NCBI RefSeq assembly: GCF_000446015.1
Contig: NC_022093.1
Coordinates: 1,170,001 to 1,202,000, forward strand
Origin: Thermofilum adornatum
Lineage (GTDB): Archaea; Thermoproteota; Thermoprotei; Thermofilales; Thermofilaceae
Direction: 5' to 3'
DNA: 32,000 nt
Part shown: piece by piece, positions 14,983-30,696 of the stretch
How positions within the stretch are numbered: the first letter of the stretch is position 1
Layout of the letters: each line of letters starts with the position of its first letter
Made by a program: the position numbers and the translations under genes
Notes under the pieces: generated by a model
Told to the model about the DNA's origin: nothing
What the model saw: the letters and a program-made list of their open reading frames with translations, nothing else
Database searches by the model: none

Positions 14983-15735
14983 TCATAAGAACTTAATTTT
15001 ACTGAAATACTTCTCGAGATACTGTTTATTTGCCTCGTCGCCCCCGGGTACATTTGCACTCATCCACACTTCAGGTTTAACCCCCATAGATAACAACTTC
15101 TGAACGGTTCTAGCGACAAGAAGCTGTAGTATAAACGAATTGATTATGGTGGAGACCGGCGCCACCTTCTGCTCTAAGCCCTCGAGTTTAAGGTAAGCAT
15201 CACCCTCAGGAACCTTATTATCGATAACAACATCTGCAAGCTCGAAAAGCTTCTTCCCCAAAGGATTGCTTGGGGGCACCCTCTTGCTATACTCAACAGA
15301 AGTAATAGCGACAACCTTCAACCCCCTGCTTTTAGCCTCTGCCGCCATCTCAACAGGAACAGCGTTCTTGCCAGAGTTACTCACAATTACAAGCACAGAA
15401 TTGGGGACAGGCTTAATTGACTCGAGCAAGACCCTGGCATAACCAGAAAGCCTCTCAAGCATAGTACTCTTAAAGGCACCATTAAGACCCGAAATACTCA
15501 AATCAAAAACTGGGTACACACGCACCAAGCCGCCTGCCCGATAAAAAGTCTCAAGAGCCATCATCATCGAGTGCCCCGTACCAAAAACATAGATGAAACC
15601 ATCATTCTTAAGAACTTGGACAAAGAGTTCTATAGCTCTCTCCATGTTCAATTTTTCTTCACGCACTATCCTCTCCTGGAGACTGGCTATTCCAGTCAAA
15701 AACTCTGAATAAATATCGGAAACCATTTTTATCAT
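14983..15735 (-). CDS. SIS (sugar isomerase) domain protein, UPF0309-like
   Basis: 250 aa. Motifs [65 protein letters not shown] and APVSTII match my recollection of the UPF0309 SIS family pattern. Confidence 0.75.
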
Positions 15736-15783
15736 TCTTCATGTTTCACAACATAAATATATTTTTAGATGTTCAAACACACC
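15736..15783. promoter_or_regulatory. Symmetric bidirectional promoter shared by the SIS gene (-) and ptsH (+)
   Basis: The 10-bp perfect palindrome AAATATATTT (15755-15764) is centred at 15759.5. That is exactly midway between the divergent start codons at 15735 and 15784, 24.5 bp from each. It is flanked by ATGTTtcacAACAT (15741-15754) and ATGTTcAAACA (15769-15779). Confidence 0.55.
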
Positions 15784-16056
15784 ATGAAAACCATCGTCCT
15801 CAAAGTTAAAAACAAGAGCGGACTACATGCGAGACCTGCAGCCGTCTTTGTCCAAACAGCAAAAAAATTCACGTCAAAAATAATTGTAAAAAAGGGCGAA
15901 AAAACCGCGGACTCAAAAAACATTCTTCAAATATTATCCCTAGGCATAGACATGGGAGACGAAATAGAACTCCAGGCTGAAGGTCCCGACGAAGAACAAG
16001 CAATAAACGAGTTGAGCAAACTTCTGCTTGAATACCTCCCATCTATAGATCAATAA
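15784..16056 (+). CDS. ptsH: PTS phosphocarrier protein HPr
   Basis: From ATG 15784 the protein is 90 aa with GLHARPA placing the phospho-His at residue 15 (codon 15826-15828). LSLG sits at 51-54. The track's ATG 15769 would add 5 aa and lies immediately next to the TATA element. Confidence 0.9.
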   Translation: MKTIVLKVKNKSGLHARPAAVFVQTAKKFTSKIIVKKGEKTADSKNILQILSLGIDMGDEIELQAEGPDEEQAINELSKLLLEYLPSIDQ

Positions 16057-16067
16057 TTTCATAAAAT

Positions 16068-17813
16068 TCATTCGAAAACCTTGACATCCTTTTTCTTTAA
16101 ATAATTCTGAGACCACTCCTTTATATCTCGAGAGGAATCAGCCTCCTCAATCATTTCTCTAACTTCCTCAGCTAGCTCTGCAAAGTTAATCCTCCTAACA
16201 ACATATTTAACTTTCCCTACAAAGCCCGGAGCTACACTCAGTCCCTTAATACCTAGACCGACAAGAACAGGTATAGCAACACCTCTACTAGCCATTTCGC
16301 CACATACTTCCGTCTCTACCCCCTCACGAATATGGTCAAGGGCGTACGACATAAGCCTCAAAACGGATGGATTAAGTTCATCGTAGACATTGCTTACATA
16401 TGTACTTGTTCTATCTGCCGCTAAAACATACTGGGTTAAATCATTCGTACCAAAGCTAACAAAGCTCAATCTGCCCTTATCTACGAGTTCTCTTACTAGC
16501 AAAGCTGCAGAAGGCACCTCTATCATGACGCCCAAAAGAGGGATCTTAACGTTTTGTCCCTCATTCTCTAGCTTTTCCTTTTCTTCTTCAATGAATCTCC
16601 TAAGCTCCTCAACCTCCTCAACTGTGGAGATCATGGGAAACATAACTCTCAAGTCACCATATACCGACGCCCGCAAAGCCGCACGAACCAGAGGCCTAAG
16701 CATTGAGTCACGATACTTTAACAAAAGACGCGTCCCCCTAAAACCCAACTGGGGATTTGCCTCCCTCGGAATCTCTAAAAACCTTACAGGCTTGTCTCCA
16801 CCAATGTCTGGGGCACGCACAGTTAGAGGACCGCCTCCTAGGAACTCTAAGCTCTTCTTAAAGAGATTAAATAATTCCTCCTCACTAGGGGCTACATCCC
16901 TAGCCATGTAAGCAAACTCAATCCTAAACAACCCAACTCCCCCGCAACCATAGCTCGGAGCTACGCGGACCTCCTCTAGGCTACCAGTATTACACATAAC
17001 AGCTACTTTTACCCCGTCAACTGTTATGGGCTCGAGCTTTTCCTCTCTTGCATACAGAGATACTGTTTCCTTATACTCGGCGACTAGAGACTTGTAATTA
17101 TCAATTAATCTTGGGGAGATATCAACAACTAAATAGCCATTCACACAGTCAAGCACAGCGGTAACGTCATTTCTCAAACTGTTTAAGTCAACCTCTTGAG
17201 AAATCAAATAAGGCACACCCTTCAACCTAGCCAATATAGACACATGCGCCGTCAACCCACCTCTCCGAGTAACTAGGCCCGCTAGCCCACCCTCAACAGC
17301 CTCCAAAAACCTAATGGGATCAATTTCTTCTGCTACAAGAATTCTATCTCTCCAATCAACATCTGTCTTAGCCGCTCCAATAATGCTTGAAACCAGGCGG
17401 GCTGAAATGTCATGCAGATCCTGAGACCTAAGAGCAAAAAGCTCACTACCACTCTTAAGCAACTCTGAATATTTCTCGTAAACCCTCTTTACAGCCGAAG
17501 CGGCGCTGAGAGACAGGTTCCGAATAAGTTCTTCAGCCTCTGACACAAGGGAATCAAGCATAAGTAACTGTGCATCAATAATTTCTTGTTCTGCTTTCGG
17601 GAGAATTCTCTTTAAGTCTTCAAGTCTCTTTTTCACTATTAGGCTTGCCTCGTTTAGAAGCTTTGTTTCTTTATCCACACCGTTGGATTTCGATTCAGAA
17701 ATGCTTTCTAATATATCTTTCTCCTTCAGGACAAAAATCCTTCCAATAGCCACCCCAGGAGACACGATTAGGCCTCTATACCTCGTCTCACTGCTCCTCG
17801 GTAAACTACTCAT
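16068..17813 (-). CDS. ptsI: PTS Enzyme I (phosphoenolpyruvate-protein phosphotransferase)
   Basis: 581 aa. Phospho-His loop GGLTAHVSILARLKGVPY, PEP-binding region FRIEFAYM, plus SFGTNDLTQY and VCGEMASRG. Confidence 0.95.
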   Translation of the reverse strand: MSSLPRSSETRYRGLIVSPGVAIGRIFVLKEKDILESISESKSNGVDKETKLLNEASLIVKKRLEDLKRILPKAEQEIIDAQLLMLDSLVSEAEELIRNLSLSAASAVKRVYEKYSELLKSGSELFALRSQDLHDISARLVSSIIGAAKTDVDWRDRILVAEEIDPIRFLEAVEGGLAGLVTRRGGLTAHVSILARLKGVPYLISQEVDLNSLRNDVTAVLDCVNGYLVVDISPRLIDNYKSLVAEYKETVSLYAREEKLEPITVDGVKVAVMCNTGSLEEVRVAPSYGCGGVGLFRIEFAYMARDVAPSEEELFNLFKKSLEFLGGGPLTVRAPDIGGDKPVRFLEIPREANPQLGFRGTRLLLKYRDSMLRPLVRAALRASVYGDLRVMFPMISTVEEVEELRRFIEEEKEKLENEGQNVKIPLLGVMIEVPSAALLVRELVDKGRLSFVSFGTNDLTQYVLAADRTSTYVSNVYDELNPSVLRLMSYALDHIREGVETEVCGEMASRGVAIPVLVGLGIKGLSVAPGFVGKVKYVVRRINFAELAEEVREMIEEADSSRDIKEWSQNYLKKKDVKVFE

Positions 17814-17922
17814 TCTTTAACCCAATCTTCTATTATCAAAAGGATATAAAATGTTTTTAAAAACTAATGCGAAAAACTAATGTTTATATTCCTAAATACA
17901 CAACTGTATTCAGGGTTGACAC
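17814..17922. promoter_or_regulatory. Divergent ptsI / nagA promoter region with palindrome and tandem direct repeat
   Basis: ATTTTATAT on the minus strand (about 17843-17851) lies upstream of ptsI. TTTATATT (17883-17890) and TAAATACA (17893-17900) lie upstream of nagA. Between them are the 12-bp perfect palindrome GTTTTTAAAAAC (17853-17864) and two copies of AAAAACTAATG. Confidence 0.45.
17859..17882 (+). repeat. Tandem direct repeat AAAAACTAATG x2 (13-bp period)
   Basis: Exact 11-mers at 17859-17869 and 17872-17882, abutting the nagA TATA-like box. Confidence 0.6.
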
Positions 17923-19080
17923 TTGAGAATTCAAGTTAGGAATGCGCATGTTTTGACTCCGCTAGAAGATATCGGCGTGGTTAATATCTCTATAAGGGAT
18001 GGCGTAATTGAGAGTTTCAATGTCCAAGGAACACCGGACAAAATAATAGATGCTGAAAGACAGTATGTCGCCCCAGGATACATCGATACCCATATACACG
18101 GCTATGCAGGCATAGATGTTACGGAGGCTTCGCCAGAAGAAATACTAGAAATGTCACAAAAACTTGCAGGACGTGGAGTGACGGCATTCTTGGCTTCAAC
18201 AGTCGCCGCACCCCACGAGAAACTTGTCCAAGCCTGTAGAAACATTACAAAGGCGGCTGAATCGTGGTCTCCCTCTAAAGGTGCGAGAATTCTTGGACCT
18301 CATCTAGAGGGCCCCTATCTAAATCCCTCCATGAAGGGTGCCATGAATGAAGCATATCTGAGAAAGCCAAGCCTGAAAGAGTTTGAAGACTACTACCTTG
18401 CTTCGAAGGGACTTCTCAGAAAAATAACGGTCGCGCCTGAGCTCGAGGGAGCCATAGATTTCATCAAATCCGTAAAGAGCAGAGGTATAACGGTCAGTTT
18501 GGGGCATTCCCAGGCAACATACGACGAGACCCTTAGAGGAATAGAGGCGGGAGCTACAGTCGCCAACCATATTTTCAACCAGATGAGGCAATTTCACCAC
18601 AGGGAACCAGGCCTCCCATTTGCTCTACTCCTAAACCCTAACACATTTATCGAGATGATTGTAGATTTCATACATCTCCATCCAGCCACTGTTCAACTCG
18701 TATTCAAACTGGCAGGACCCCTACGAACAGTCCTCATAACAGATGCAGTTAGTGCGTCTGGCTTGCCCGATGGCGAGTATGTACTGGGAGGCCTCAAGAT
18801 AACCGTTAAAAATGGCGTTTCAAGGCTGAGTGAAAGCGGGGCCCTGGCCGGAAGCACCTTGACAATGGACAATGCAGTCAAAAATGTGATAAAGGCCGGA
18901 GCAGGCCTTCTAGAGGCACTTACAATGGCTAGCTATACACCCTCTAAGAGCATCGAGGCATTAACACGGGAAAAAATAGGCTACTTAAAGCCCGGATACA
19001 AGGCAGACCTCATTATTCTAGATGAAAAATTAAATGTAAAGAAGACAATTATAAATGGAGAGCTCGTCTACGAGGGATAA
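17923..19080 (+). CDS. nagA: N-acetylglucosamine-6-phosphate (or N-acetylgalactosamine-6-phosphate) deacetylase, NagA/AgaA family
   Basis: 385 aa. Amidohydrolase motifs GYIDTHIHGYAG, HLEGPYLNP, SLGHSQATY, VANHIFNQM and LITDAVSASG. The only in-frame start near the N-terminus is TTG 17923. Confidence 0.85.
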   Translation: MRIQVRNAHVLTPLEDIGVVNISIRDGVIESFNVQGTPDKIIDAERQYVAPGYIDTHIHGYAGIDVTEASPEEILEMSQKLAGRGVTAFLASTVAAPHEKLVQACRNITKAAESWSPSKGARILGPHLEGPYLNPSMKGAMNEAYLRKPSLKEFEDYYLASKGLLRKITVAPELEGAIDFIKSVKSRGITVSLGHSQATYDETLRGIEAGATVANHIFNQMRQFHHREPGLPFALLLNPNTFIEMIVDFIHLHPATVQLVFKLAGPLRTVLITDAVSASGLPDGEYVLGGLKITVKNGVSRLSESGALAGSTLTMDNAVKNVIKAGAGLLEALTMASYTPSKSIEALTREKIGYLKPGYKADLIILDEKLNVKKTIINGELVYEG

Positions 19081-19082
19081 AA

Positions 19083-20912
19083 ATGGGAGGAATATTCGCT
19101 GCTATTTCAAAAAGTTCTGAAAACACTGTTCCCATAGTAATAGAAGGCCTTAGAAGGCTTAAATACAGGGGCGCAGACAACTCGGGAATAGCTGTTCTTC
19201 TAGACGGACGCATAGAGATTTTCAAGGAAGCGGGATCAATAGAGGCAGTTTCAGCGAAACTCGGACTAGAAAACATATCCTCAAGAATAGTCTTGGGACA
19301 CACGCGCTTCGCCACCCATGGACGACCCACTGTTGAAAATGCTCATCCCCACACCGACTGTGAAAGAAGGATTGCTGTCGTCGGAGACGGCTCACTCTCA
19401 AACTATGAAGATTTAAGAGACAAACTGCTGATGGAGGGCCACAAGATTACTTCGAGATCAGACTTTGAGGTAGTTGCACATATATTTGAGTCTCTTCTCA
19501 ACAAAGAATATCAGTCATCAGAGTTCCTGAAGGAGATTTACTCGAAAATGGAAGGATACTTCTCATTTGCAGTTCTGGAGGCAGAAAAACAAAGAATAAT
19601 CGCGACAACAAATGGGCCCAAACTTTTCTACGGGCTGTCAGACAAATACGTTCTCCTTTCCAGTAGCCAATACGCCCTGCACGGCTTTGCAGACCAATAC
19701 GGCGAGCTCTCTCCAGGAGAACTAATAATCCTTTCAAAAGATGGGCCCACCATTTACACCTCAGAAGGCTTAGCGAAACAGGTACAGTCTTTACCGCTCC
19801 AACTCGACCCCATACTCGTCGAGAAAGGCGGCTATAAACATCACATGCTTAGGGAAATAAACGAAGTGCCAGAAGCTCTCCTAAGAACGCTCAGTTCTGT
19901 GCAAAAGAGATATTTGAACCTCGCGGGAAGACTGGTAACAGGAGCCGACAATATCTACATCATAGCAAACGGCACAAGCCTACACGCAGGCATGATAGCC
20001 TCCTACTACTTCTCCGAGCTCGCCGGCATAAGCCCAATAGTGACAAGTGCGGCCGAGTTCCCACTATACTACCTGGAAAACGTCGGGCCAGGAACCCTCG
20101 TCATTGCTATTTCCCAGTCTGGAGAAACTGGAGACGTATTATCATCTCTATACGAGGCAAAACTTAGAGGAGCCACGATTCTTGGAATAACCAACTATGT
20201 TGGCTCGAGGCTCGCTAGGCTCTCCAATCTCTACTTACCAATTGCCGCAGGACCAGAAATAGCCGTTCCAGCCACAAAGACATTCACCTCAACCCTTCAA
20301 GTTCTCTACCTAGTAGCCCTAAGCTCATCAAGACAAAAAGGCAAAATAGAGGAATCCGAGCAAAAAGCGAGGCTTGAAGCTATCAAGAAGCTTGCACAAA
20401 GCCTTGATGAAAGGCTTGCATTCATAGATAGTGAAGCAACAAAAGCCGCAGAAAAAATATCTCTTTGCAGGTCAGGCTATGTAGTTTCAAGAGGATTAAC
20501 ATATCCCCTCGCACTAGAAGGAGCACTAAAACTAAAAGAGGCCTCGTATTTCCACGCCGAGGGTGTCGAAGCAGGAGAATTCAAGCACGGTCCATTCGTC
20601 CTTGTAGAGCAAGGTTTCGCCACGATATTTATTATGCCTGTCGAAAAGGTTTCTGCAGAGGCAACTTTTCCATCGATAGAGATGGCCAGACAAACAGGTG
20701 CAACCGTAGTAGTGATAGGCTCTGAGAACAATCAGAAGTTGCTTGAGCTTTCACAAGACGGCGTAACTACCATACGAGCCGTAGAGACTGAGAGGCACCT
20801 TGCCCCAATATCGCTGGCTGTACCTCTCCAGCTCCTCGCCTATAGACTAGGCGAAAAACTAAACAGGCCCATAGATACTCCTAGGCACCTAGTAAAAGCC
20901 GTTACACAGTAA
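19083..20912 (+). CDS. GlmS-like protein (GATase-II-like N-domain plus two SIS domains) lacking the catalytic N-terminal Cys; possible sugar-phosphate deaminase/isomerase
   Basis: 609 aa, collinear with glutamine-fructose-6-P aminotransferase (GLRRLKYRG, GHTRFATHG, NAHPH, AISQSGETGD, EGALKLKEASYFHAEGVEAGEFKHGP, C-terminal PRHLVKAVTQ). It begins MGGIF instead of MCGI (codon 2 is GGA, 19086-19088). It has VVGDG instead of VHNG (D102, 19386-19388). Confidence 0.85.
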   Translation: MGGIFAAISKSSENTVPIVIEGLRRLKYRGADNSGIAVLLDGRIEIFKEAGSIEAVSAKLGLENISSRIVLGHTRFATHGRPTVENAHPHTDCERRIAVVGDGSLSNYEDLRDKLLMEGHKITSRSDFEVVAHIFESLLNKEYQSSEFLKEIYSKMEGYFSFAVLEAEKQRIIATTNGPKLFYGLSDKYVLLSSSQYALHGFADQYGELSPGELIILSKDGPTIYTSEGLAKQVQSLPLQLDPILVEKGGYKHHMLREINEVPEALLRTLSSVQKRYLNLAGRLVTGADNIYIIANGTSLHAGMIASYYFSELAGISPIVTSAAEFPLYYLENVGPGTLVIAISQSGETGDVLSSLYEAKLRGATILGITNYVGSRLARLSNLYLPIAAGPEIAVPATKTFTSTLQVLYLVALSSSRQKGKIEESEQKARLEAIKKLAQSLDERLAFIDSEATKAAEKISLCRSGYVVSRGLTYPLALEGALKLKEASYFHAEGVEAGEFKHGPFVLVEQGFATIFIMPVEKVSAEATFPSIEMARQTGATVVVIGSENNQKLLELSQDGVTTIRAVETERHLAPISLAVPLQLLAYRLGEKLNRPIDTPRHLVKAVTQ

Positions 20913-20922
20913 GGGGTACAAC

Positions 20923-22158
20923 TTGTTAGAGTTAGCCTTCACAAAGACAACTATAACTCCTCAGCCGGCTCAAGGACACGAGTTGGCTGGCTACATAACC
21001 AGGAGAGAAAAATCGCAGGGAGTACATGACGATATAGAACTCCGAGCACTACTTATTGAAGACGAGTCAGCGGTCTTGCTTGTTAATCTCGACCTTTTAG
21101 GGGTAGACACACATATCAAGGAAACAATTCAAAGAGTAGCAGAAAAGACAATTGGAAATGTCAATGTTATAGTTACTGCTACACATACTCACTCAGCCCC
21201 AGCGACTCTGTTTACAAACCTCTTGCTTACTTTTGGAGACAATGTTTTCCGAAAGGACTACTTCGATTATTTTGTGGAACAAACCGAGAAGACTTTTTCA
21301 AACATAGCTAATAACCTCGAACCAACTGAGACATATATCTATAAAACAAAGATAAGAGATATAGCCACAGACAGAAACGATCCACGAAACCCTATAGACA
21401 ACGAGGCACTTCTGCTAACTTTTGCCTCGAAGGGGGAAACTAAGGGTTTCCTTGTAAATTACGCAGTCCACCCTACAGTATTAGGACCCGACAATTTACT
21501 TATAACTAAGGATCTCATTGAATATATTCTCAAAGGACTTTATTCTGTCCTTAAAACAAATATAGGCCTCTTCCTAAATGGTGCGGCAGGCAATATTTCA
21601 ACAAGGTTTACCAGGAGAGCACAAACATTCAGTGAAGCTGAAAGAATCGGCAATGAATTTGCACGCCAAGTTTTGGTATCGAAATTTAGGCTCCACAATG
21701 TGGAAAATCTTAGAATAGTGTCCAAAGAAATAACTGTTTCTTTCAAAGAATATACCGAGGAGGAAATACGCAAGCTATCGATGCCTACATGGAAAGACGG
21801 AACACGTAGAAGCGAGTCGCTGAGAGAAGGAATAGAAGCTTTAAACAAACTTTATCCAATTATTTCAAAGAAAAGATACACAGCGAAAGCTGAAATAATA
21901 GGTCTAAATCTGGGCGACCTCAAAATGGTATTCGTCCCGTTCGAACTGCATTCAGATATTTCTCTAAGTTTAAAAAAACTGGTGGAGCCTCGATATCTTG
22001 CGCTTGTAGGATATACAAATGAATATTTTGGCTACTTATTGATGAAGGAGGCCGAGCCAGGATACGAAAAAATAATGCAGTTTGTAGATGAGAAAACGCG
22101 TCAACAAGTGTTTTCTGCGATATGTAATGTGCTAGACATCGATCCAGGTTCCCTGTGA
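20923..22158 (+). CDS. Neutral/alkaline ceramidase N-terminal-domain-like hydrolase (uncharacterised amidohydrolase)
   Basis: 411 aa. ITPQPAQGHELAGY, GVHDDIELRALLIED and VTATHTHSAPA resemble the prokaryotic ceramidase-like family pattern. Starts at TTG 20923 with SD AAGGGGT at 20911-20917. Third gene of the nagA unit. Confidence 0.55.
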   Translation: MLELAFTKTTITPQPAQGHELAGYITRREKSQGVHDDIELRALLIEDESAVLLVNLDLLGVDTHIKETIQRVAEKTIGNVNVIVTATHTHSAPATLFTNLLLTFGDNVFRKDYFDYFVEQTEKTFSNIANNLEPTETYIYKTKIRDIATDRNDPRNPIDNEALLLTFASKGETKGFLVNYAVHPTVLGPDNLLITKDLIEYILKGLYSVLKTNIGLFLNGAAGNISTRFTRRAQTFSEAERIGNEFARQVLVSKFRLHNVENLRIVSKEITVSFKEYTEEEIRKLSMPTWKDGTRRSESLREGIEALNKLYPIISKKRYTAKAEIIGLNLGDLKMVFVPFELHSDISLSLKKLVEPRYLALVGYTNEYFGYLLMKEAEPGYEKIMQFVDEKTRQQVFSAICNVLDIDPGSL

Positions 22159-23257: not shown

Positions 23258-23761
23258 TTAGAATTTTATACTTCTTATCTTCTCAGCCATATCTAACGGC
23301 TTCGGTGGAAAATCTGGAAGTTGCTGATAATAAAGCTTTATACCCATGTCGAGAAGCTTAAGCAAAGCCTTGTGATCCTCGGGACCAATATCGAATGTTT
23401 TTTCCACCTTGACTCTCCCAGCTCTATAACCCATCTGTCCCAAGAGAACCCACTCAACATTTACTCCAGATTTCTCAATGAAAGCTAGAACATCGACTGG
23501 ATTCTCAAAGAGCATTAATATCTTTAGATTATTATTTACATTCTTGATTTTAATAGCAGCCTCCTCTACCTTCAACACTTCAACAGCAATGCCTGGGGGC
23601 GCAAGCATAACCTGCAACTGCTTCAAGGCAGGATTACTAGCTATCTTATCGTTTACCACCCAAATAGCATTTGCTCCAAATTTCTTTGTCCATGCCGCTG
23701 TTACTTGTCCATGTATAAAACGGTCATCAATACGAATGATAATATTCTGATTGTTTTCCAT
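23258..23761 (-). CDS. PTS mannose/sorbose-family EIIB component
   Basis: IIIRIDDRFIHGQVTAAWTK contains the family's phospho-His motif (RIDDRLIHGQV). ATG 23761 is preferred (SD GGGTG at 23772-23768, 6-nt spacer) over TTG 23764. Confidence 0.9.
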   Translation of the reverse strand: MENNQNIIIRIDDRFIHGQVTAAWTKKFGANAIWVVNDKIASNPALKQLQVMLAPPGIAVEVLKVEEAAIKIKNVNNNLKILMLFENPVDVLAFIEKSGVNVEWVLLGQMGYRAGRVKVEKTFDIGPEDHKALLKLLDMGIKLYYQQLPDFPPKPLDMAEKIRSIKF

Positions 23762-23839
23762 CAATTACACCCAAACTCTTACTCATGTAAGTTTTCATTT
23801 TATCTTTTAAGCTTTTTCTAGGCATCATTAAGACCAGTT

Positions 23840-24244
23840 TTATTTTGAAATTTCAACAAGCTGAGGTCCCACAAAGGCTCTTATTCCCTGCAAGCCCGCG
23901 TCCTTTACTCTAGAAATAAATTCTTGCAGATTACTTCCGAGATCTTCATTCGTGAGGATCTCTATAGCTATTGCCATGTTAAAACCTGTAATGACAGCCT
24001 TAGCCCTTCCCTCTTGGAGCAACATTAATGCGGCCCTACTAGGAGTCCCACCAAACAGATCAGCCAATATTATTGTTTCAGGATCCACTTTACCCGAAAG
24101 CTTCTCATAGTAATTCTCGAGGCTCTCTCCCTCTAAAAGATCTACACAATCAGTCTTCTCTTTGACAGATAAGCCAAGGATCATTGAAACAGCCTCACGC
24201 ATTGCGCACCCAAGGCCTCCATGAGAGGCAAACACTATCCTCAT
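23840..24244 (-). CDS. PTS mannose-family EIIA component
   Basis: N-terminal MRIVFASHGGLG carries the EIIA-Man phospho-His motif. LADLFGGTP follows later. ATG 24244 is preferred (SD GAGGTGA at 24256-24250, 5-nt spacer) over GTG 24253, which overlaps the upstream stop. Confidence 0.85.
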   Translation of the reverse strand: MRIVFASHGGLGCAMREAVSMILGLSVKEKTDCVDLLEGESLENYYEKLSGKVDPETIILADLFGGTPSRAALMLLQEGRAKAVITGFNMAIAIEILTNEDLGSNLQEFISRVKDAGLQGIRAFVGPQLVEISK

Positions 24245-24249
24245 ACCCC

Positions 24250-25137
24250 TCACCTCAAATAAGACATAGCGATACGTCTATAAGTATGTCTAACACCCCT
24301 CACAGCTAAAGAAAGCTCCAAAATATTCTCTGGAAGAGCTACCCTCATCCCATACCCAGAATCCCCAATATGGTGAATATCACAGCCGCATGCCTTCGAG
24401 GTTAAACCGATTTTCCGGATTACACTTCTCTGGGCCCCCTCCTGAGACGTCCCAATTGTACACATAAGTACAGCATCATACCTATAAGCAAGCTTAGCAA
24501 CCGAACTCACATTTTCCGGCAGTGACCATGGAACAGTGTAAGGTGCAGGTATCACTATTCCATCGGCACCCCTAGCTAAAACCTCTTCAATAAGTCTCAA
24601 GTCGTACATCTCTTCTGTTCTCAAGCCTCCACTATGCATCTTTCCACCAAAAACCAAAACTCTATCTCCAGCAATTTTTCTCGCCAATTCTACACCTTTA
24701 GATATCCTACTCCAAGTCACGCCAAGACCTGGATTCCCCGTAACAACTAATAGTTTAGATCCCAAATCAATGCTGGCCTTGACACTCTCCTCGGAAAGAG
24801 TTCTTCCAGCAGGAAGCAATCCAGGATCCACAGGCTCAAGGTTATGGCCGACAAACCTGCCGAGAAATTCAGAAAGCATCGAAAAAGAAGTATAATACTT
24901 TTCAGGAACACCCTCAATCCTGGGATTAAATACATCAATCATGTTCAGAAGAATTACATCCGCACCAAATGACGCCGCCAACTCGACATTGGAGACCCCA
25001 TCTATGAGTGGAGGAGCAGTAACCACGATTTCTGCTGCAATGGTCCTCCCCTCAGAGCTTAGAACAGCTGCCTTAAAATCTTTAGCTAAACATTTTGAGA
25101 GCTCTTTACCAGTCATTTCCAAAACTCTTTTAGCCAC
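24250..25137 (-). CDS. Uncharacterised 295-aa soluble protein, first gene of the EIIA-EIIB-oxidoreductase operon (possibly alpha/beta-barrel enzyme)
   Basis: Intact ORF translationally coupled to EIIA. Alternating hydrophobic-strand and helix pattern (GADVILLNMIDVF, LLVVTGNPG, VLVFGGKMHSGG, GADGIVIPAPY, AVLMCTIGTSQEG). I do not recognise a named family. Confidence 0.6.
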   Translation of the reverse strand: MAKRVLEMTGKELSKCLAKDFKAAVLSSEGRTIAAEIVVTAPPLIDGVSNVELAASFGADVILLNMIDVFNPRIEGVPEKYYTSFSMLSEFLGRFVGHNLEPVDPGLLPAGRTLSEESVKASIDLGSKLLVVTGNPGLGVTWSRISKGVELARKIAGDRVLVFGGKMHSGGLRTEEMYDLRLIEEVLARGADGIVIPAPYTVPWSLPENVSSVAKLAYRYDAVLMCTIGTSQEGAQRSVIRKIGLTSKACGCDIHHIGDSGYGMRVALPENILELSLAVRGVRHTYRRIAMSYLR

Positions 25138-25234: not shown

Positions 25235-26836
25235 ATGACAGCAATTGGACCATTCGAAGTGGGACTTCTAGGACTCCTAGCATTCTTCTTCGGACTAGAC
25301 TACATCTGGGTAACCCCGCTAGGTATCTGGCGCCCCGTAGTAGCCGGCACAATAACAGGCATTCTCCTTGGAGACCCACTAACGGGTCTACTAGTAGGTT
25401 CACTACTCGAATTCGTCTTTGCAGGTCTCTTTACAATCGGTGGAGGCACAGTGCCAGAGGCCGCAACAGGAACAATAGCATCAGTCGTCGTAGCCGTAGT
25501 GACCGGTTTGAAGCCGGAGGCAGCTGTACCACTAGCAATTCCAGTTGCAGTTCTAACGATGAACATAGAAATCGTTGTAAGGTCTTTTGACGCCGTATTC
25601 ACTCACTGGGCCGACCGTGAAATAGAGAGAGGAAACTATGGAATGATACCAATAATAAACATATTGGGTGCAGTTCCCTGGGGTCTTTCCAGAGCCATAC
25701 CTATATGGCTCTTTGTAGGTGCACTAGCAATCAACCCGCCAGCAGTTAAAGCCGCCATAGACGCATTACAAGTAGTATACATAGGGCCATTTGTCATTAA
25801 ATTCTGGGATGCGATGGCTGTTGCTGGAGCAGTTCTACCAGCACTCGGAGCCGCAATCTTAATGAAGCTTATGATTTCTAGAAGAAACGTCATGTTCTTC
25901 ATTCTTGGATTCGCACTGGCCGCCTACCTCAAGCTAAGCCTACTAGCAATAGCACTCATCGCTGGCTCGATAATATTTGCCATCTACTATTTCATACACC
26001 GCGAAACCCTCGAGACACAGCTTTCAACTACAACAGCGCCTCCAGCTGGAAAAGCCACAACAAAAGACTTTATCAGATGGTTTGGCGTTTCATGGTTTAT
26101 TCAGTCCTCCTGGAACTATGAAAGAATGATGGGCACAGGATTTGCACATGGAATGCTAGACATAGAGAAGAAGCTAAGAAAAGACCCAGAAGAACTGAAA
26201 GCCTGGATGAGACTACACAACGAATTCTACAATACTGAGCCACACATTCACAATGCAATATACGGAATGACGATATCATTAGAAGAACAAGGTGCAGACC
26301 CAGACACTATACGAGGCATAAAGACAGCACTAATGGGGCCATTCGCTGGACTAGGAGACTCATTAATATGGTTCACAATCCTCCCAATAGCATTCCTCAT
26401 AGGCGCCTCCCTAGGAGTACATGGAAATATCCTTGGCCCAGTAGTTGCACTCCTCATATGGATACCCGTCTCATGGGCAATCAAATACTATTCCCTCGTC
26501 TATGGATACAAGTATGGTCTATCATTGGCTGAGGTACTAAAGGGAGACGTCCTCAAGATATTCAGGGAAGGAATTGCAGCATTTGCAATGGCAATGGTTG
26601 GAGGCATAGCAGCCACATACGTCAGAGCAACAACACCAATAGTCTTAGCCCAGTACGGTGGCCAGGCCATCAAGCTGCAGCCAGTTCTAGACCAGCTCAT
26701 GCCATCACTGCTCCCACTCCTATTTACACTATATGCCTACTGGCTCATCAAGACAAAAGGCTACAGCTACGGTAAAGCTGTCATTATCCTGTTCCTCACA
26801 GCCTTCGTGCTTGCTTTAATAGGAGTCCTGGGATAA
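25235..26836 (+). CDS. PTS mannose-family EIIC-EIID fusion protein
   Basis: 533 aa. The N-terminal ~255 aa is EIIC-Man-like (IWRPVVAGTITGILLGDPLTGLLVGSLLEF). A Thr/Pro/Ala-rich linker ETQLSTTTAPPAGKATTK follows at nt ~26000-26065. The C-terminal half is EIID-like (SWNYERMMGTGFAHGM, HNEFYNTEPH, ALMGPFAGLGDS). Confidence 0.9.
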   Translation: MTAIGPFEVGLLGLLAFFFGLDYIWVTPLGIWRPVVAGTITGILLGDPLTGLLVGSLLEFVFAGLFTIGGGTVPEAATGTIASVVVAVVTGLKPEAAVPLAIPVAVLTMNIEIVVRSFDAVFTHWADREIERGNYGMIPIINILGAVPWGLSRAIPIWLFVGALAINPPAVKAAIDALQVVYIGPFVIKFWDAMAVAGAVLPALGAAILMKLMISRRNVMFFILGFALAAYLKLSLLAIALIAGSIIFAIYYFIHRETLETQLSTTTAPPAGKATTKDFIRWFGVSWFIQSSWNYERMMGTGFAHGMLDIEKKLRKDPEELKAWMRLHNEFYNTEPHIHNAIYGMTISLEEQGADPDTIRGIKTALMGPFAGLGDSLIWFTILPIAFLIGASLGVHGNILGPVVALLIWIPVSWAIKYYSLVYGYKYGLSLAEVLKGDVLKIFREGIAAFAMAMVGGIAATYVRATTPIVLAQYGGQAIKLQPVLDQLMPSLLPLLFTLYAYWLIKTKGYSYGKAVIILFLTAFVLALIGVLG

Positions 26837-26855: not shown

Positions 26856-27524
26856 TCACTTTGGTTCTCCAAGAATCTTCTGTAAGCCTTCTACGACCCC
26901 CTCACCATAAGGCCTATTAGTCACATAGTCTGCCATCTCTTTCAATTTTTGATCCGCATTAGCAACAGCCACCTTAAAGCGGGCAATCCGAAACATTGGT
27001 ATATCAGACGCGCTATCTCCAATAGCAACCATATTCTTAGCATCCCAGCCAGTTACCTGTAAAAGCCTAGACACCCCGACACCCTTATCAAGCCCCCTTG
27101 GTGCAAAAACATGAGTCCGCGAACCTACCTTCTTCATTTCCACAGAGTATTCACTCTGTTTGTTTAATAATACATGTTGCGCTAGGGAAATATTATCTTG
27201 GTCAAAATAATACAGAACTTCTCCCAGGTTAACCCTGGGGACAACTCTAGAAACCTCTTCGATAAACGTGTTCCACCACTTAGGCCTAAATAAGATCAAA
27301 TCACTTGGCGGGAAGAAGAGAACACTGCCAAGCTCAAGAACCAAGGCATCAAACAAACTCGCTTCAACGAATCTCTCAATGTCGCTTAAAGGTCTGGCCG
27401 TAGCTAGAATTAGCTTAAAACCATGCTTTTGTTTTAGAGTCATGACCGACTGGGCCACTTCGTATCTAACAGGATGATTCTCCTCAGCCAGAGTTCCATC
27501 ATAGTCAACAACTATCAACAACAT
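26856..27524 (-). CDS. HAD-superfamily subfamily IIB (Cof-type) sugar-phosphate phosphatase
   Basis: 222 aa. Motif I VVDYDGTL, motif II ILATARP and motif IV AIGDSASD, with a cap-domain-sized insertion. Confidence 0.8.
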   Translation of the reverse strand: MLLIVVDYDGTLAEENHPVRYEVAQSVMTLKQKHGFKLILATARPLSDIERFVEASLFDALVLELGSVLFFPPSDLILFRPKWWNTFIEEVSRVVPRVNLGEVLYYFDQDNISLAQHVLLNKQSEYSVEMKKVGSRTHVFAPRGLDKGVGVSRLLQVTGWDAKNMVAIGDSASDIPMFRIARFKVAVANADQKLKEMADYVTNRPYGEGVVEGLQKILGEPK

Positions 27525-27751: not shown

Positions 27752-29041
27752 ATGAGCCCGTTAGAAATTTTGTACTGGATCGGGCAAAATATTCTTGGAC
27801 AACCACCAATACTTCTAGGCCTAGTAGCCTTAATAGGCTTATTGATACAGAGAAAGTCATTTGAGGAGATTATAACTAGCACCTTCAAAGTAATGATAGG
27901 AGTCGTAATGATGATTGCCGGCGCCACTCTTTTTGTTAATGAATTGGTAAACTTTCAAAACATTGTAGGTACTGCGGTTGGCTTCCAGCCAAAATACCCG
28001 CCCGGGTATATCCCTCTAGGAGACTTTACTGCTAAGTTTGGTAGCTATGCAGCAATGATAATGACTGTTGCATTTATTATCCACTTGATAATTGCCCGAT
28101 TCACCAAAATAAAATTCGTTTACTTAACAGGACACTTGATGTGGTGGGTATCTTTAACTGTTGTTGCAACTCTTCTCACCATTAAACCTAATGCGTCAGC
28201 CCTCGAGATAATAGCAATCGGTTCAATAGTTATGGCACTCTACTGGAGCATACAGCCATGGTATATACACTCTGCAATGAAAGAAGTTATGGGCACAGAT
28301 GAGATAGCTTTTGGTCATACATCATCTTCGGCTGCTTTTCTAGCTTTCTATCTAGGTAAATATATAGGTAAACCAGAAGAGAGCACAGAACAAGTAAAAT
28401 TCCCCAAAGCATTAAGCTTCTTTAAAGACTACGCTGTAAGTACAGCCGTAATCCTGGGCTTAATAATGATCATAGCCGCCATAATAGGTTATGCCATAAA
28501 CCCAACTGCTGTAGTTAAATTAGCTGGAGAGCTCAATCCTATAATTTGGGCTTTTCTGAGAGGCATATACTTCGCCGTAGCCATCGTTGTTCTTTTAACA
28601 GGAGTAAGAATGTTTATCGCAGAAATTGTCCCAGCGTTTAGAGGTATAGCACAGAAACTTATTCCAGGAGCAAAACCAGCACTTGATTGCCCAGTAGTTT
28701 TTCCGCAGGCACCAACTGCAGTAGTTATCGGATTCGTAAGTGGTTTAATTGTCTTCCTAGTATTCATGGGATTATTTGCAGCGACAGGTTTTGCAATAAT
28801 TGTTCCGCCAATGATAATGTTATTCTTCCCAGGCGGAGCAGCAGCTGTATTTGGAAATAGAACTGGAGGCTGGAAAGGCGCAGTACTTGGAGGTGTTATA
28901 AATGGTGCTTTCTTAGCTATTGGGCAGGCAGTTACCCTGAATGCATTGACTTATGCTCCAGAACTTGCAACACTAGCTGACCCAGATTGGTACATAATTA
29001 TCTGGTTGTTAAAGGCAATCTTAGGACCTTTCTTCAAATAA
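27752..29041 (+). CDS. PTS ascorbate-family EIIC (UlaA/SgaT-type permease)
   Basis: 429-aa polytopic protein. The N-terminus LEILYWIGQNILGQPPILLGLVALIGLLIQRKS parallels UlaA. AATAAATA box at 27721-27728, about 27 bp before the ATG. Confidence 0.9.
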   Translation: MSPLEILYWIGQNILGQPPILLGLVALIGLLIQRKSFEEIITSTFKVMIGVVMMIAGATLFVNELVNFQNIVGTAVGFQPKYPPGYIPLGDFTAKFGSYAAMIMTVAFIIHLIIARFTKIKFVYLTGHLMWWVSLTVVATLLTIKPNASALEIIAIGSIVMALYWSIQPWYIHSAMKEVMGTDEIAFGHTSSSAAFLAFYLGKYIGKPEESTEQVKFPKALSFFKDYAVSTAVILGLIMIIAAIIGYAINPTAVVKLAGELNPIIWAFLRGIYFAVAIVVLLTGVRMFIAEIVPAFRGIAQKLIPGAKPALDCPVVFPQAPTAVVIGFVSGLIVFLVFMGLFAATGFAIIVPPMIMLFFPGGAAAVFGNRTGGWKGAVLGGVINGAFLAIGQAVTLNALTYAPELATLADPDWYIIIWLLKAILGPFFK

Positions 29042-29058
29042 GAAATAAATTAATTTTT
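29042..29058. terminator. Shared bidirectional terminator region
   Basis: GAAATAAATTAATTTTTTTATTTTTT lies between convergent stops, with oligo-T and oligo-A runs on both strands. Confidence 0.4.
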
Positions 29059-29379
29059 TTATTTTTTCTCTATCCATCCAGCATCAAGTAGTGCTTTTGT
29101 TATCTTTTCTCTCATCTCTTTTTTATCCACGAGACTCTTTAATCCTACAATTATTTTTGCCGAGCCTTTTAATTCGGGTTCATGTATTATAGAGCAAACG
29201 ATAATATCGGCGCCTCCGGCTTTTGCAGTCAATATTTCTGTTGGTTCAACCTTTGCAGGAATACCGAGTTCCTTAAATACATCATCTACGAACATTTTCA
29301 TGATCAAGGAACTTCCCTGCCCAACACCACATACAGTGAGAACTTTTAATTCTCTTCCTAAAATGTAGCTATAAGTCAT
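29059..29379 (-). CDS. PTS ascorbate/lactose-type EIIB (UlaB/SgaB-like)
   Basis: 106 aa. KVLTVCGVGQGSSLIMKM carries the phospho-Cys P-loop motif (CGxGxGSS). Confidence 0.85.
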   Translation of the reverse strand: MTYSYILGRELKVLTVCGVGQGSSLIMKMFVDDVFKELGIPAKVEPTEILTAKAGGADIIVCSIIHEPELKGSAKIIVGLKSLVDKKEMREKITKALLDAGWIEKK

Positions 29380-29449
29380 CGGTTTTTCACCTTACCTTAA
29401 AATTTAATTGTAAGAAAGTATTTATTGTTTTTCAGCCACGCAATGAAAT

Positions 29450-29914
29450 GTGGCCTGCTCCTATAACGAGATATGGAAGGCGGTTGAGGAAAGAATCAAA
29501 GTTGTGGAAGTAGTGTCAGACTGGAAAGAAGCAGTAATCCTTGCAGGTAAGCTTCTGCAGAGAGATAATTGCATAGAAGAATCCTACATAGAAGGAATGA
29601 TCAAGACATGTCAAGAATTGGGACCCTATATTGCAATTGCTCCTGGACTTGCTATTCCCCATGCACGACCAGAGGAAGGTGCCCAAAAGACGTGTTTCTC
29701 TATACTAGTAGTGCGTAAAGGTGTTAACTTCGGTTCTCATAACGACCCCGTTTACATAGTAGTGGCTTTTTCCTCTCCTGACAAAAAATCACATTTAAAA
29801 TTTCTCCAAGTTTTAGCTGAACTCTTCGCAAATAAAGGAGAACAAATAGTGAACAGCCTCCGTGAAGCAAAAAATACCTATGAAGCCCTGTCAATACTAA
29901 GGGAACTATTATAG
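29450..29914 (+). CDS. PTS EIIA, fructose/mannitol/ascorbate (EIIA-2, UlaC-like) type
   Basis: 154 aa. GLAIPHARPEEG contains the phospho-His. DWKEAVILAGKLL is a typical N-terminal segment. GTG 29450 start, with GTATTTATTG box at 29418-29427 about 27 bp upstream. Confidence 0.85.
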   Translation: MACSYNEIWKAVEERIKVVEVVSDWKEAVILAGKLLQRDNCIEESYIEGMIKTCQELGPYIAIAPGLAIPHARPEEGAQKTCFSILVVRKGVNFGSHNDPVYIVVAFSSPDKKSHLKFLQVLAELFANKGEQIVNSLREAKNTYEALSILRELL

Positions 29915-29964
29915 AAGTAATTACCATGCGTAATTATTGATGCAAGAGAAAAAAAGATTGTTTT

Positions 29965-30696
29965 TCACTGCTGAATGTTGAGCAAGACCCGAGACTTAAC
30001 TTCCTCGCTGAGAAGACTCCGCCATGCATTGCTCAAAGATACTATTGCAAAGACGCCCACAGTGTACGCGTCAGCGTCGCGGACAATATTCAATAGTGCT
30101 TTCAGAGTTCTTCCTGAACGGAGTAGGTCATCAGCTATGAGCACTCTAGAGTTCTTTGGTATGTGGTTCGCCGGGAGATATATGTGGACAATGCTGGGTG
30201 GATCTGTCTGAAAAATCTGTGCAGAGAGGTATTTTATCGACTGGCTTTCCCGCTCCCTGCGTGCCACTGCCAGCTTGGCGTCTAAAACCCAAGCAAGTAG
30301 AGATGCTAGTGGGATACCATTTACTGCAGCCGTCAAGACGACGTCTACGCTTCTAAAAAACGATAAATAAGCCTCGGCCATTGCCACTGTCAAGACGTCT
30401 TCATCGTAGGCCAGCTCTGCTACGTTGACCACGCCGTTCTCATCGATTTTCAGCTTGTTCTGAACAACTTGGGCGAAGACGTTCTCGCTCCTCAATGCCT
30501 GAATAATGTGGACTGCCTTTAACTGTGGAGGCAGAACTGTCCCAACAATGTACCGTTTAAGTTCAGGCTGTGATATCCTAATCTTGTTCTCTGCCAAGAT
30601 CTCGTACAAGTAGCCGAGCTCAAAATGTTTGCTTAGGGTCTTCAGGGCTCTCCAAGCCAGGATCTGGGGTATTGCTGCTTCACTTCTGGTTATCAT
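29965..30696 (-). CDS. Phosphoribosyltransferase-domain protein with N-terminal HTH-like domain (PurR/GfcR-type candidate transcription regulator)
   Basis: 243 aa. PRPP-loop motif RVLIADDLLRSGRT (nt 30106-30144). The N-terminal ~70 aa are helical and HTH-like (LSKHFELGYLYEILAENKIRISQPELKRYI). AAATATATAA box at 30716-30725, about 24 bp upstream. Confidence 0.7.
   Translation of the reverse strand: MITRSEAAIPQILAWRALKTLSKHFELGYLYEILAENKIRISQPELKRYIVGTVLPPQLKAVHIIQALRSENVFAQVVQNKLKIDENGVVNVAELAYDEDVLTVAMAEAYLSFFRSVDVVLTAAVNGIPLASLLAWVLDAKLAVARRERESQSIKYLSAQIFQTDPPSIVHIYLPANHIPKNSRVLIADDLLRSGRTLKALLNIVRDADAYTVGVFAIVSLSNAWRSLLSEEVKSRVLLNIQQ

Follow-up and report, generated by a model that had tools for sequence, protein, structure and literature searches.

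Which sugar is taken up by a bacterial-type phosphoenolpyruvate (PEP)-dependent phosphotransferase system (PTS) encoded in the chromosome of a hyperthermophilic crenarchaeon, and how long has such a system been there? The question is raised by a 32,000-nucleotide stretch of DNA (referred to here, in its entirety, as the window) from the chromosome of Thermofilum adornatum strain 1910b (CP006646; strain DSM 28063), a cultured anaerobic hyperthermophile from Kamchatka with a growth optimum of 80°C and a 1.75-Mb genome of 46.5% G+C (PMC6965361). The PTS locus, at positions 14983 to 30696 of the window, encodes enzyme I (EI), HPr, the IIA, IIB, and fused IIC-IID components of a Man-family permease, and the IIC, IIB, and IIA components of an Asc-family permease. 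On balance, we lean toward the view that this is a PTS locus inherited within Thermofilaceae, whose two permeases would serve the uptake of N-acetylhexosamines that are then processed by NagA and a deaminase. Judging from the gene content, the transported sugar is most likely of the N-acetylglucosamine (GlcNAc), N-acetylgalactosamine (GalNAc), or N-acetylmannosamine (ManNAc) type or else a small glycoside of such a sugar. An N-acetyl amino sugar is favored for three independent reasons: a bona fide nagA heads an operon with a glmS-like gene, a core of EI, HPr, SIS_2, and NagA or NagA-like genes is paired with a Man permease in Thermofilaceae and with an Asc permease in Desulfurococcus and Thermococcus, and the DUF7916 gene adjoins GlcNAc-specific PTS genes in many bacteria. 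Amino-sugar uptake and catabolism had been suggested in a preliminary description of the locus, and the comparative context (the Thermococcus, Desulfurococcus, and DUF7916 loci) strengthens that suggestion.

PTS components and the phosphoryl relay

Gene content was established from a six-frame listing of open reading frames (ORFs) and from Pfam and NCBIfam scans of the window proteins. The window is compact and fully coding, and all ORFs of the locus are present, uninterrupted, and endowed with the expected domains, so that the claim of a complete and intact PTS stands. EI contains the Pfam domains PEP-utilisers_N, the mobile domain, and the C domain and scores 416 bits against TIGR01417 (cutoff, 341.7), while HPr matches PTS-HPr (E = 9e-30) and TIGR01003 (90.8 bits; cutoff, 47.9). 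Alignment to solved bacterial proteins puts every phospho-accepting His or Cys residue at its canonical position. In EI, the His motif GGLTAHVS and the Cys motif VCGEMAS align with GGRTSHSA and MCGEMAG, respectively, of the protein with the Protein Data Bank (PDB) entry 2hro, and the GLHARPA motif of HPr is identical to that of 3le1. In the Man permease, the active-site His in the ASHGG motif of IIA (EIIA-man, E = 4e-13) aligns with ASHGN of 5t3u and ITHGD of 3lfh, and IDDRFIHGQV of IIB (PTSIIB_sorb, E = 2e-39), which includes the active-site His, aligns with IDDRLIHGQV of Escherichia coli IIB-Man. In the Asc permease, the Cys in VLTVCGVGQGSS of IIB aligns with the Cys in VLTACGNGMGSS of 3czc, and IPHARPEEG of IIA (PTS_EIIA_2, E = 9e-28) aligns with MPHARPEDG of 3oxp.

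Five N-terminal codons of the HPr ORF are probably not translated. The relatives are called at 90 amino acids, and the TATA-like element AAATATAT lies about 26 nucleotides upstream of the internal ATG at position 15784 (Met6), so that this ATG is probably the true start, which would give a 90-residue protein with the phospho-accepting His at position 15. In the alignment to 3le1, the position of Ser46 is occupied by Asn, so regulation of the HPr kinase type would not be expected.

At the protein level, EI (N186_RS06460) has been detected in T. adornatum by liquid chromatography-tandem mass spectrometry, with a cellulose/pyruvate ratio of relative intensity-based absolute quantification values of 6.71, and the Gfo/Idh/MocA-type dehydrogenase (GFO; N186_RS06480), detected in the same way, was 6.97-fold higher on cellulose (PMC6965361); these two proteins are made. 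The relay is complete and looks functional, because all the domains are present, the active-site His and Cys residues align, the genes are intact in the relatives, and EI and GFO have been detected. In the proposed scheme, PEP would phosphorylate EI on its His residue, EI would pass the phosphoryl group to His15 of HPr, and HPr would feed both permeases: the Man permease through IIA (His) and IIB (His) to the fused IIC-IID, and the Asc permease, apparently a later insertion into the locus, through IIA (His) and IIB (Cys) to IIC.

NagA, SIS_2, and a GlmS-like protein without its catalytic cysteine

The deacetylase scores 299.7 bits against TIGR00221 (cutoff, 225.65) and contains the Pfam domain Amidohydro_1; by sequence, it is a bona fide member of the NagA equivalog family, and its gene is kept in the Thermofilaceae clusters of Thermofilum pendens and Infirmifilum lucidum. 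The SIS_2 protein (Pfam SIS_2, E = 1e-43; PRK02947, 297.6 bits with a cutoff of 135) has orthologs that adjoin HPr and EI genes in T. pendens and Asc-type EII, EI, and HPr genes in Thermococcus sp. EP1 and a Desulfurococcus metagenome-assembled genome (MAG), and is a candidate amino-sugar-6-phosphate deaminase/isomerase.

The third protein of this group had been described as GlmS-like, which holds for its homology but not for its glutaminase function. It scores 508.6 bits against the glmS equivalog model TIGR01135 (cutoff, 418.05), contains two SIS domains, and aligns over its whole length with E. coli GlmS (2j6h). Class II amidotransferases use their N-terminal Cys as the nucleophile. In the T. 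adornatum protein, which starts with MGGIF, this catalytic Cys1 is replaced by Gly (MGG instead of MCG), and the oxyanion-hole Asn98 is replaced by Asp (VVGDGS versus VVHNGI in E. coli). The start codon appears unambiguous, because the ATG lies 2 nucleotides past the nagA stop codon and is preceded by the Shine-Dalgarno (SD)-like GAGG. T. pendens, I. lucidum, and a T. pendens-like contig have both replacements. When 1.84 billion cluster representatives (50% clusters) were searched exhaustively and the best 150 were taken, six Cys-less proteins were found among the closest full-length relatives. Five of them (P0508, P0510, P0512, P0513, and P0516; 37 to 53% identity) have GG at the start and one (P0529) has GA, and their position 98 is Asp in the first four, Glu in P0516, and Thr in P0529. 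Among the full-length proteins of the same 150, 125 start with MCG and retain the Asn and the RWATHG motif.

Such co-varying losses of Cys1 and Asn98 in a conserved clade argue for a changed function. The isomerase half is, by sequence, intact, and the SIS region scores 130 bits with the NagB-II model, 55 bits with GlmD, and 47.3 bits with FrlB (all NCBIfam). Because the glutaminase residues are lost while the isomerase half is intact and homologous to NagB-II and GlmD, this protein is probably a glucosamine (GlcN)-6-phosphate or galactosamine (GalN)-6-phosphate deaminase/isomerase, or at most an enzyme that depends on ammonia, and not a glutamine-dependent synthase. It is named GlmS in the databases because it passes the glmS equivalog cutoff, and the name is probably a functional misannotation. 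The resemblance to the bacterial nag regulon comprises the presence of NagA, SIS domains homologous to the isomerase domain of GlmS, as in NagB-II and the Thermococcus GlmD, and the co-occurrence of DUF7916 with nagE, nagA, and nagB in Bacillota. However, the T. adornatum locus lacks a classical NagB and a Glc-family NagE, and its putative deaminase, unlike NagB-II and GlmD, retains a full-length, catalytically disabled glutaminase domain.

The same replacements can be read in terms of salvage: glutamine-dependent synthesis of GlcN-6-phosphate would have been lost, N-acetyl amino sugars would be imported for UDP-GlcNAc and the glycans of the cell itself, and the GlmS-derived protein would balance the pool in either direction with ammonia. 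This would fit the loss of Cys1 and Asn98 from an otherwise well-conserved protein, the presence of a HAD-type sugar phosphatase within the cluster, and the dependence of Thermofilum on other archaea, whose culture filtrate or cell fractions it needs for growth; T. adornatum requires yeast extract together with filtered culture broth from Desulfurococcus, Pyrobaculum, or Fervidococcus (PMC6965361). A deacetylase gene accompanied by deaminase-type genes is, however, the classical catabolic arrangement, and we judge the salvage scheme to be quite unlikely. The preliminary description had also raised the uptake of fructosamines or glycated amino acids, handled as in the gfr and frl systems with the SIS proteins acting as deglycases. 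A Man-family PTS next to SIS proteins does recall the Salmonella gfr operon, and the GlmS-like protein does match the FrlB model, but the 47.3 bits are to be set against a cutoff of 430, and the same region obtains 130 bits with NagB-II and 508 with GlmS. Furthermore, a bona fide NagA is present that would have no role in fructosamine catabolism, Pfam detected no FrlD-type kinase or sigma-54 activator domain in the locus, and the bacterial context of DUF7916 is that of GlcNAc and not of fructoselysine. That leaves little support for fructosamines, which we consider a very improbable substrate.

DUF7916 and other accessory proteins

The DUF7916 protein (PF25509, E = 5e-101), which has many invariant charged residues, is predicted by AlphaFold2 to be a (beta/alpha)8 barrel (pLDDT of 92.5). 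Neither Foldseek nor a profile search of the PDB found a close structural or sequence neighbor: the former retrieved only generic aldolase or pyruvate kinase-type TIM barrels with TM scores of about 0.5, and the latter a marginal match to NanE (E = 0.02). Literature searches for DUF7916, UPF0309, and Infirmifilum with PTS found nothing. DUF7916 could plausibly be a NanE-like epimerase or an aldolase that acts on a sugar phosphate.

The genomic context of this family is more telling. DUF7916 is widespread in bacteria, with at least 559 loci in species-representative genomes; this collection yielded no Thermofilum or Infirmifilum record, so absence from it is uninformative for Thermofilaceae. 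Among the 80 loci that were fetched, 74 are bacterial, and 27 of these 74 have a Glc-family IIBC(A) gene nearby, with the tblastn match no more than 300 bp from DUF7916 in 16 cases. All four IIBC genes that were scanned pass the cutoff of the GlcNAc-specific model TIGR01998 (614, 629, 616, and 574 bits versus 553). In many Bacillota, DUF7916 is the immediate neighbor of such a IIBC gene. Alongside these genes lie nagA and nagB (locus L040; divergently oriented in Melghiribacillus), and the gene order in a Chloroflexi MAG is SIS_2-?-nagE-DUF7916-nagA-ptsI-ptsH. The association with the PTS is frequent but not universal, because the Sporosarcina and Citrobacter loci contain no PTS genes, the Citrobacter copy being located between purB and phoPQ.

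The ceramidase-like protein matches the N-terminal region of Ceramidase_alk (E = 3e-21), and a profile built from seven orthologs retrieves neutral ceramidases of humans and Pseudomonas (E of about 1e-23). Its THTHS, HPT, and PFE motifs and a GY-containing segment align with those of neutral ceramidases, and the C-terminal domain is missing. The gene is common to the archaeal Man-type clusters and is also found in an Anaerolineales MAG; its product may be a second amidase in addition to NagA. The best NCBIfam match of GFO is levoglucosan dehydrogenase, at 166.6 bits far below the cutoff of 650, and its best PDB matches are levoglucosan dehydrogenase (6a3f), scyllo-inositol/L-glucose dehydrogenase, and DgpA. 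In the T. adornatum paper, this protein was labeled GH109 by dbCAN (PMC6965361), a label that we reject, as no GH109 structure was recognized among 52 PDB matches at E < 1e-8.

The HAD protein scores 129.9 bits against TIGR01487 (cutoff, 122.75), and its gene keeps its place beside IIC-IID in T. pendens, I. lucidum, and a Desulfurococcales MAG. In the product of the phosphoribosyltransferase (PRTase)-domain gene, the Pribosyltran domain covers only residues 104 to 219, so that the N terminus is extended by about 100 residues, and the purR_Bsub model gives 53.5 bits; the gene is kept at the cluster edge in T. pendens and I. lucidum. By analogy with GfcR, a protein with helix-turn-helix and PRT domains that activates the PTS gene ptfC in Haloferax (PMC10838023), it is a candidate regulator of the PurR/GfcR type.

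Man-family permease

Membership in the Man family (TC 4.A.6) is indicated by the presence of all four components, including the IID (PF03610, PF03830, PF03609, and PF03613), and by the aligned His residues of IIA and IIB. In the fused membrane protein, EII-Sor spans residues 9 to 247 and EIID-AGA spans residues 275 to 532. IIC and IID are separate proteins in classical bacterial Man systems. The fusion is kept in T. pendens, a Desulfurococcales MAG, Njordarchaeia, and a Nitrososphaerota MAG (tblastn identities of 91%, 72%, 57%, and 56%, respectively).

With respect to specificity, Man IIA, IIC, and IID all score best on Aga (GalNAc/GalN) models, each below the equivalog cutoff: the best NCBIfam match of IIA is AgaF (65 bits), and the closest models of IIC and IID are AgaW and the galactosamine IID. 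The system resembles E. coli ManXYZ and the aga PTS in its IIA (His), IIB (His), IIC, and family-specific IID with aligned active-site motifs, and it resembles the aga PTS further in these best matches and in the linked NagA/AgaA-type deacetylase. It differs from both in the IIC-IID fusion, in IIA and IIB being separate proteins, and in its accessory genes for DUF7916, GFO, and the ceramidase-like protein. From aga it also differs in lacking AgaS, the tagatose-bisphosphate aldolase (AgaY/Z), and the kinase. The parts of the aga regulon that the locus does contain are a deacetylase, although one scoring as NagA, and the SIS deaminase candidate; there was no match in the locus to an aga-type kinase or to the class II aldolase family, and the aldolase likeness of DUF7916 is at the level of the fold only (TM score of about 0.5).

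In some T. pendens-like metagenomic contigs and Njordarchaeia loci (L001 to L003, L012, and L021), the DUF7916 gene is followed directly by IIB, with no match to IIA-Man at the expected place. The IIB proteins of these loci would need a IIA encoded elsewhere.

Asc-family permease

Membership in the Asc family (TC 4.A.7) is indicated by PF03611, PF02302, and PF00359 and by the aligned Cys of IIB and His of IIA. The IIC protein matches EIIC-GAT (E = 2e-98) and, with 449 bits, passes the cutoff of 380 of NF006919, a model with an "ascorbate" label. Like E. coli UlaABC (SgaTBA), the system consists of three separate proteins, a UlaA-type IIC, a IIB with Cys, and a IIA with His. Unlike in E. coli, the three genes are not co-directional, and they are linked to SIS_2 and NagA and not to Ula catabolic genes: Pfam detected no ascorbate-catabolic genes of the UlaD/E/F/G type in the window or in the Thermococcus sp. 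EP1 and Desulfurococcus loci. With no such genes detected, and with SIS_2 and either NagA or a NagA-like amidohydrolase as the linked genes, the "ascorbate" label is probably an overannotation of specificity, with the family membership itself being sound.

The HAD and PRTase genes are direct neighbors in T. pendens and I. lucidum, with no Asc genes between them, whereas the three Asc genes lie between HAD and PRTase in T. adornatum and in a 97%-identical metagenomic relative. By this comparison, the Asc genes are an insertion into the locus. The segment has the lowest G+C content of the window (0.39 to 0.40), and a search for direct or inverted repeats marking the insertion or the inverted IIB gene gave only short matches at chance level. 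The nearest relatives of the IIC protein are in hyperthermophilic archaea, with identities of 65 to 82%, including an Infirmifilum MAG (80%), Thermosphaera and Thermoprotei MAGs (76 to 77%), Thermococcus sp. EP1 (68%), and a Desulfurococcus MAG (65%); in bacteria, identities are 60% or less (Thermoflexus, 60%; Caldanaerobacter and Thermoanaerobacter, 56 to 57%). None of the matches above 60% comes from a complete-genome-scale contig, which suggests that this IIC is missing from T. pendens Hrk5, I. lucidum, and Infirmifilum sp. NZ. As a second route of entry, the Asc permease would have been acquired laterally.

In the Desulfurococcus MAG, the gene order is IIC-IIB-IIA-SIS_2-NagA-like-EI-HPr. 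In Thermococcus sp. EP1 (JXCG01000001.1), IIC-IIB is found beside genes for EI, two IIA proteins, HPr, a 559-residue SIS protein, SIS_2, and an amidohydrolase that is assigned as NagA-like by Pfam only. IIC and IIB are co-directional in both loci. Complete sets of EI, HPr, and Asc-type EII are thus present in a Thermococcus isolate and a Desulfurococcus MAG; because of these sets, PTS genes can be said to be present in a wider range of lineages of hyperthermophilic archaea than is apparent from the reviews consulted.

Conservation and age of the cluster

The host had been taken for a crenarchaeon, which is correct: the 10 window proteins that were compared are all identical to those of T. adornatum 1910b, and the cluster with its GlnA and PRTase flanks is syntenic with T. 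pendens Hrk5, where it occupies about 1.027 to 1.048 Mb of CP000505.1 in the order PRTase-HAD-IICD / DUF7916-IIA-IIB-GFO / ceramidase-like-GlmS-like-NagA / EI / HPr / SIS_2-GlnA. I. lucidum has the same order from PRTase through HPr, and this synteny of the cluster and its PRTase side is likewise in line with an archaeal host. The T. pendens cluster shares the Cys1Gly change in the GlmS-like protein but lacks the Asc IIC, IIB, and IIA genes between HAD and PRTase and the extra DJ-1/PfpI gene of T. adornatum. All components are intact in these two relatives, and tblastn identities of the cluster proteins range from 41 to 91% in T. pendens and I. lucidum together, from the ceramidase-like protein to IIC-IID, and from 46% to 91% in T. 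pendens alone; EI is 54 to 63% identical, and IIC-IID is 84 to 91% identical. The best bacterial matches of EI, from Bacillota, are 34 to 35% identical, and a Thermoprotei MAG belongs to a group in between, with about 40% identity.

These observations indicate that the cluster is an old family resident, inherited within Thermofilaceae. Recent lateral transfer of the whole cluster is rejected in view of its G+C content, which is in line with that of the flanks, and of the identities of EI, 34 to 35% to bacterial proteins versus 54 to 63% within Thermofilaceae. Outside this family, the Desulfurococcales MAG encodes HPr, EI, ceramidase-like, GFO, IIB, IIA, DUF7916, IICD (72%), and HAD, and two Njordarchaeia contigs and one Nitrososphaerota MAG carry a core of IICD / DUF7916-IIB-GFO.

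Choosing among candidate substrates

In the pathway that we favor, an N-acetylhexosamine would be delivered into the cell as its 6-phosphate, NagA would strip off the acetyl group, and the resulting amino-sugar-6-phosphate would be deaminated and isomerized to a ketose-6-phosphate (fructose-6-phosphate) and ammonia by the GlmS-derived protein, the SIS_2 protein, or both. DUF7916, GFO, and the ceramidase-fold amidase would probably channel a variant of the sugar (an epimer, a derivative with another N-acyl group, or a glycoside) into this core pathway.

A number of points weigh against N-acetylhexosamine uptake. None of the EII components reaches a substrate-specific (equivalog) cutoff, and Man-family permeases are often broad, with bacterial systems commonly taking glucose and mannose. 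The GlmS-like protein could still serve biosynthesis with ammonia, the glmS comparison being one that covers the copy in this locus, and the fold search with DUF7916 retrieved generic barrels only. According to the species paper, T. adornatum uses neither chitin nor chitosan, and its list of growth substrates does not include GlcNAc, GalNAc, or GlcN (PMC6965361). The higher levels of EI and GFO on cellulose are compatible with a role in neutral sugar uptake or simply with a general induction by carbohydrates.

Some of these points would equally fit a PTS that imports neutral hexoses or beta-glucosides (of the glucose, mannose, cellobiose, or lactose type), with NagA and the GlmS-like protein serving amino-sugar biosynthesis or salvage. 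Glucose, mannose, lactose, cellobiose, and cellulose all support growth of T. adornatum, and the species paper ties Asc IIC to the GH1, major facilitator superfamily (MFS), and galT/galK genes that are found a few genes downstream of the locus (PMC6965361). However, the GH1/gal genes have an MFS transporter of their own, and an energy-coupling factor (ECF)-type transporter stands between them and the PTS. The linkage of NagA, GlmS-like, and SIS_2 genes to EI and HPr, with either permease, persists across Thermofilaceae, SIS_2 and a NagA-like gene are likewise linked in Thermococcus and Desulfurococcus, and bacterial DUF7916 genes are associated with GlcNAc-specific PTS genes; moreover, Pfam found no sugar kinase, phospho-beta-glucosidase, or phosphofructokinase-type gene in the locus. 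A neutral sugar substrate therefore seems unlikely to us, and uptake of N-acetylhexosamines remains the reading that we favor.

Gene organization and expression signals

The coordinates of the locus and of the neighboring genes are listed in Table 1. The operon that starts with nagA (17923 to 22158, plus strand) converges with the DUF7916-IIA-IIB-GFO operon (25137 down to 22132, minus strand). An archaeal-style 11-subunit nuo operon, noted earlier, is indeed next door, with nuoEFG missing. No tRNA or Rfam families were found in the window.

Table 1. Genes of the PTS locus and its surroundings in the 32,000-nucleotide window
Feature	Position	Strand	Family assignment or remark
Two antiporter-like (NuoL/M/N-type) genes	109-3082	+	Precede nuoA; extra to the nuo set
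nuoABCDHIJKMLN (11 genes)	3212-12970		Without nuoEFG; adjoins the PTS region
glnA	13017-14348		
DJ-1/PfpI gene	14381-14896		Between SIS_2 and GlnA
SIS_2	14983-15735	-	Pfam SIS_2, PRK02947 family; divergent from HPr
HPr	15769-16056	+	Pfam PTS-HPr
EI (PEP:protein phosphotransferase)	16068-17813	-	Three EI Pfam domains, TIGR01417
NagA-type N-acetylhexosamine-6-phosphate deacetylase	17923-19080	+	TIGR00221, Pfam Amidohydro_1; heads the nagA / glmS-like / ceramidase-like operon
GlmS-derived protein (glutaminase-type domain and two SIS domains)	19083-20912	+	TIGR01135
Ceramidase-like Zn amidohydrolase, 411 residues	20923-22158	+	Pfam Ceramidase_alk N-terminal region
GFO, NAD-dependent sugar dehydrogenase	22132-23244	-	Gfo/Idh/MocA by Pfam; last gene of the DUF7916-IIA-IIB-GFO operon
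Man-family EIIB	23258-23764	-	PTSIIB_sorb
Man-family EIIA	23840-24253	-	EIIA-man; relatives called from an internal Met, 134 residues
DUF7916 TIM barrel	24250-25137	-	PF25509; first gene of the IIA/IIB operon
Fused Man-family EIIC-EIID, 533-residue membrane protein	25235-26836	+	EII-Sor and EIID-AGA
HAD-IIB (Cof-type) phosphatase	26856-27524	-	Hydrolase_3, TIGR01487
Asc-family (UlaA/SgaT-type) EIIC	27752-29041	+	EIIC-GAT, NF006919
Asc-family EIIB	29059-29379	-	PTS_IIB
Asc/Mtl-type EIIA	29450-29914	+	PTS_EIIA_2
PRTase-domain protein	29965-30696	-	Pribosyltran domain; cluster boundary
Multipass membrane protein, 267 residues	30766-31569	+	No Pfam match

The GenBank entries for 10 window proteins (NuoD, NuoL, DJ-1, SIS_2, EI, GlmS-like, GFO, IICD, HAD, and Asc IIC), within the range AGT35659 to AGT35681, are all identical to the translations from the window, and most of these proteins are also identical in strain 1505. 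EI is AGT35671, and HAD has the locus tag N186_06710.

Archaeal expression signals had been claimed for the locus, and inspection of the upstream regions, which is a consistency check and not a statistical test, agrees with this qualitatively. The first genes of transcription units have 73 to 86% A+T at positions -40 to -18, with the exception of the membrane protein gene at 30766 (64%), a TATA-like motif is found in most of them, near -27 to -37, and most have no SD motif. Most operon-internal genes are preceded by GGGTG or GAGG at about -11/-12. The Asc-family genes differ in orientation (IIC on the plus strand, IIB on the minus strand, and IIA on the plus strand), so each of them would have its own promoter region.

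The gene for the 267-residue membrane protein neighbors those for CbiQ and for a double ABC ATPase, located just past the window (L093, 6685 to 9916), and together they look like an ECF-type transporter.

Implications for archaeal PTSs

According to the reviews, PTS function in archaea has been characterized only in haloarchaea. The fructose PTS of Haloferax volcanii (ptfC, ptsI, and ptsH) was reportedly characterized by Pickl and colleagues in 2012. It resembles the T. adornatum system in having a PEP-dependent EI/HPr relay in an archaeon and a PRT-domain protein at hand but, unlike the Thermofilum system, has been characterized biochemically; it also differs in its Fru-family EII, its product (fructose-1-phosphate), and its host, a halophilic euryarchaeon. 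For T. pendens, the genome paper of Thermoproteus tenax, in the passage concerned, cites a 2008 paper on T. pendens for the PTS of that crenarchaeote (PMC3189178). The preliminary account of the literature, with function known in haloarchaea and T. pendens noted at the genome level, agrees with the reviews and with that passage, by which the PTS of the genus Thermofilum has been known since 2008 and is not a new feature. The novelty claimed for it accordingly holds in part, for the substrate and physiology: the genome had been published and annotated, and Asc IIC features as "a PTS transporter" in the species paper of 2020, which also reports the detection of EI by proteomics (PMC6965361). What is new here is the Asc insertion, the clade of GlmS proteins that lack Cys1, the association of DUF7916 with GlcNAc PTS genes, the fused IIC-IID, and the archaeal module of Asc, SIS_2, and NagA-like genes.

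A broader and more tentative proposal, possible in our view but doubtful, is that an amino-sugar PTS toolkit, consisting of EI, HPr, NagA-type, and SIS_2 proteins that are combined with a Man permease of the fused-IICD kind or with an Asc permease, has been laterally shared among hyperthermophilic archaea (Thermofilaceae, Desulfurococcales, Thermococcus, Njordarchaeia, and the lineage of one Nitrososphaerota MAG). The Asc permease would then carry an N-acetylhexosamine, the members of the GlmS clade would be deaminases, and Thermofilum, dependent as it is on other archaea, would scavenge amino sugars from the glycans of its neighbors. If this is true, N-acetylhexosamine would be a new specificity for the Asc family.

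The analysis narrows the choice of experiments, with N-acetylhexosamines as the substrates to be tried first, and flags the Cys-less "GlmS" and the widespread DUF7916. A PTS operating at 80°C in a cultured and sequenced crenarchaeon would make a tractable case for the study of a high-temperature phosphoryl relay, and the T. adornatum system also bears on the substrates of Asc-family permeases and on the spread of bacterial-type modules among archaea.

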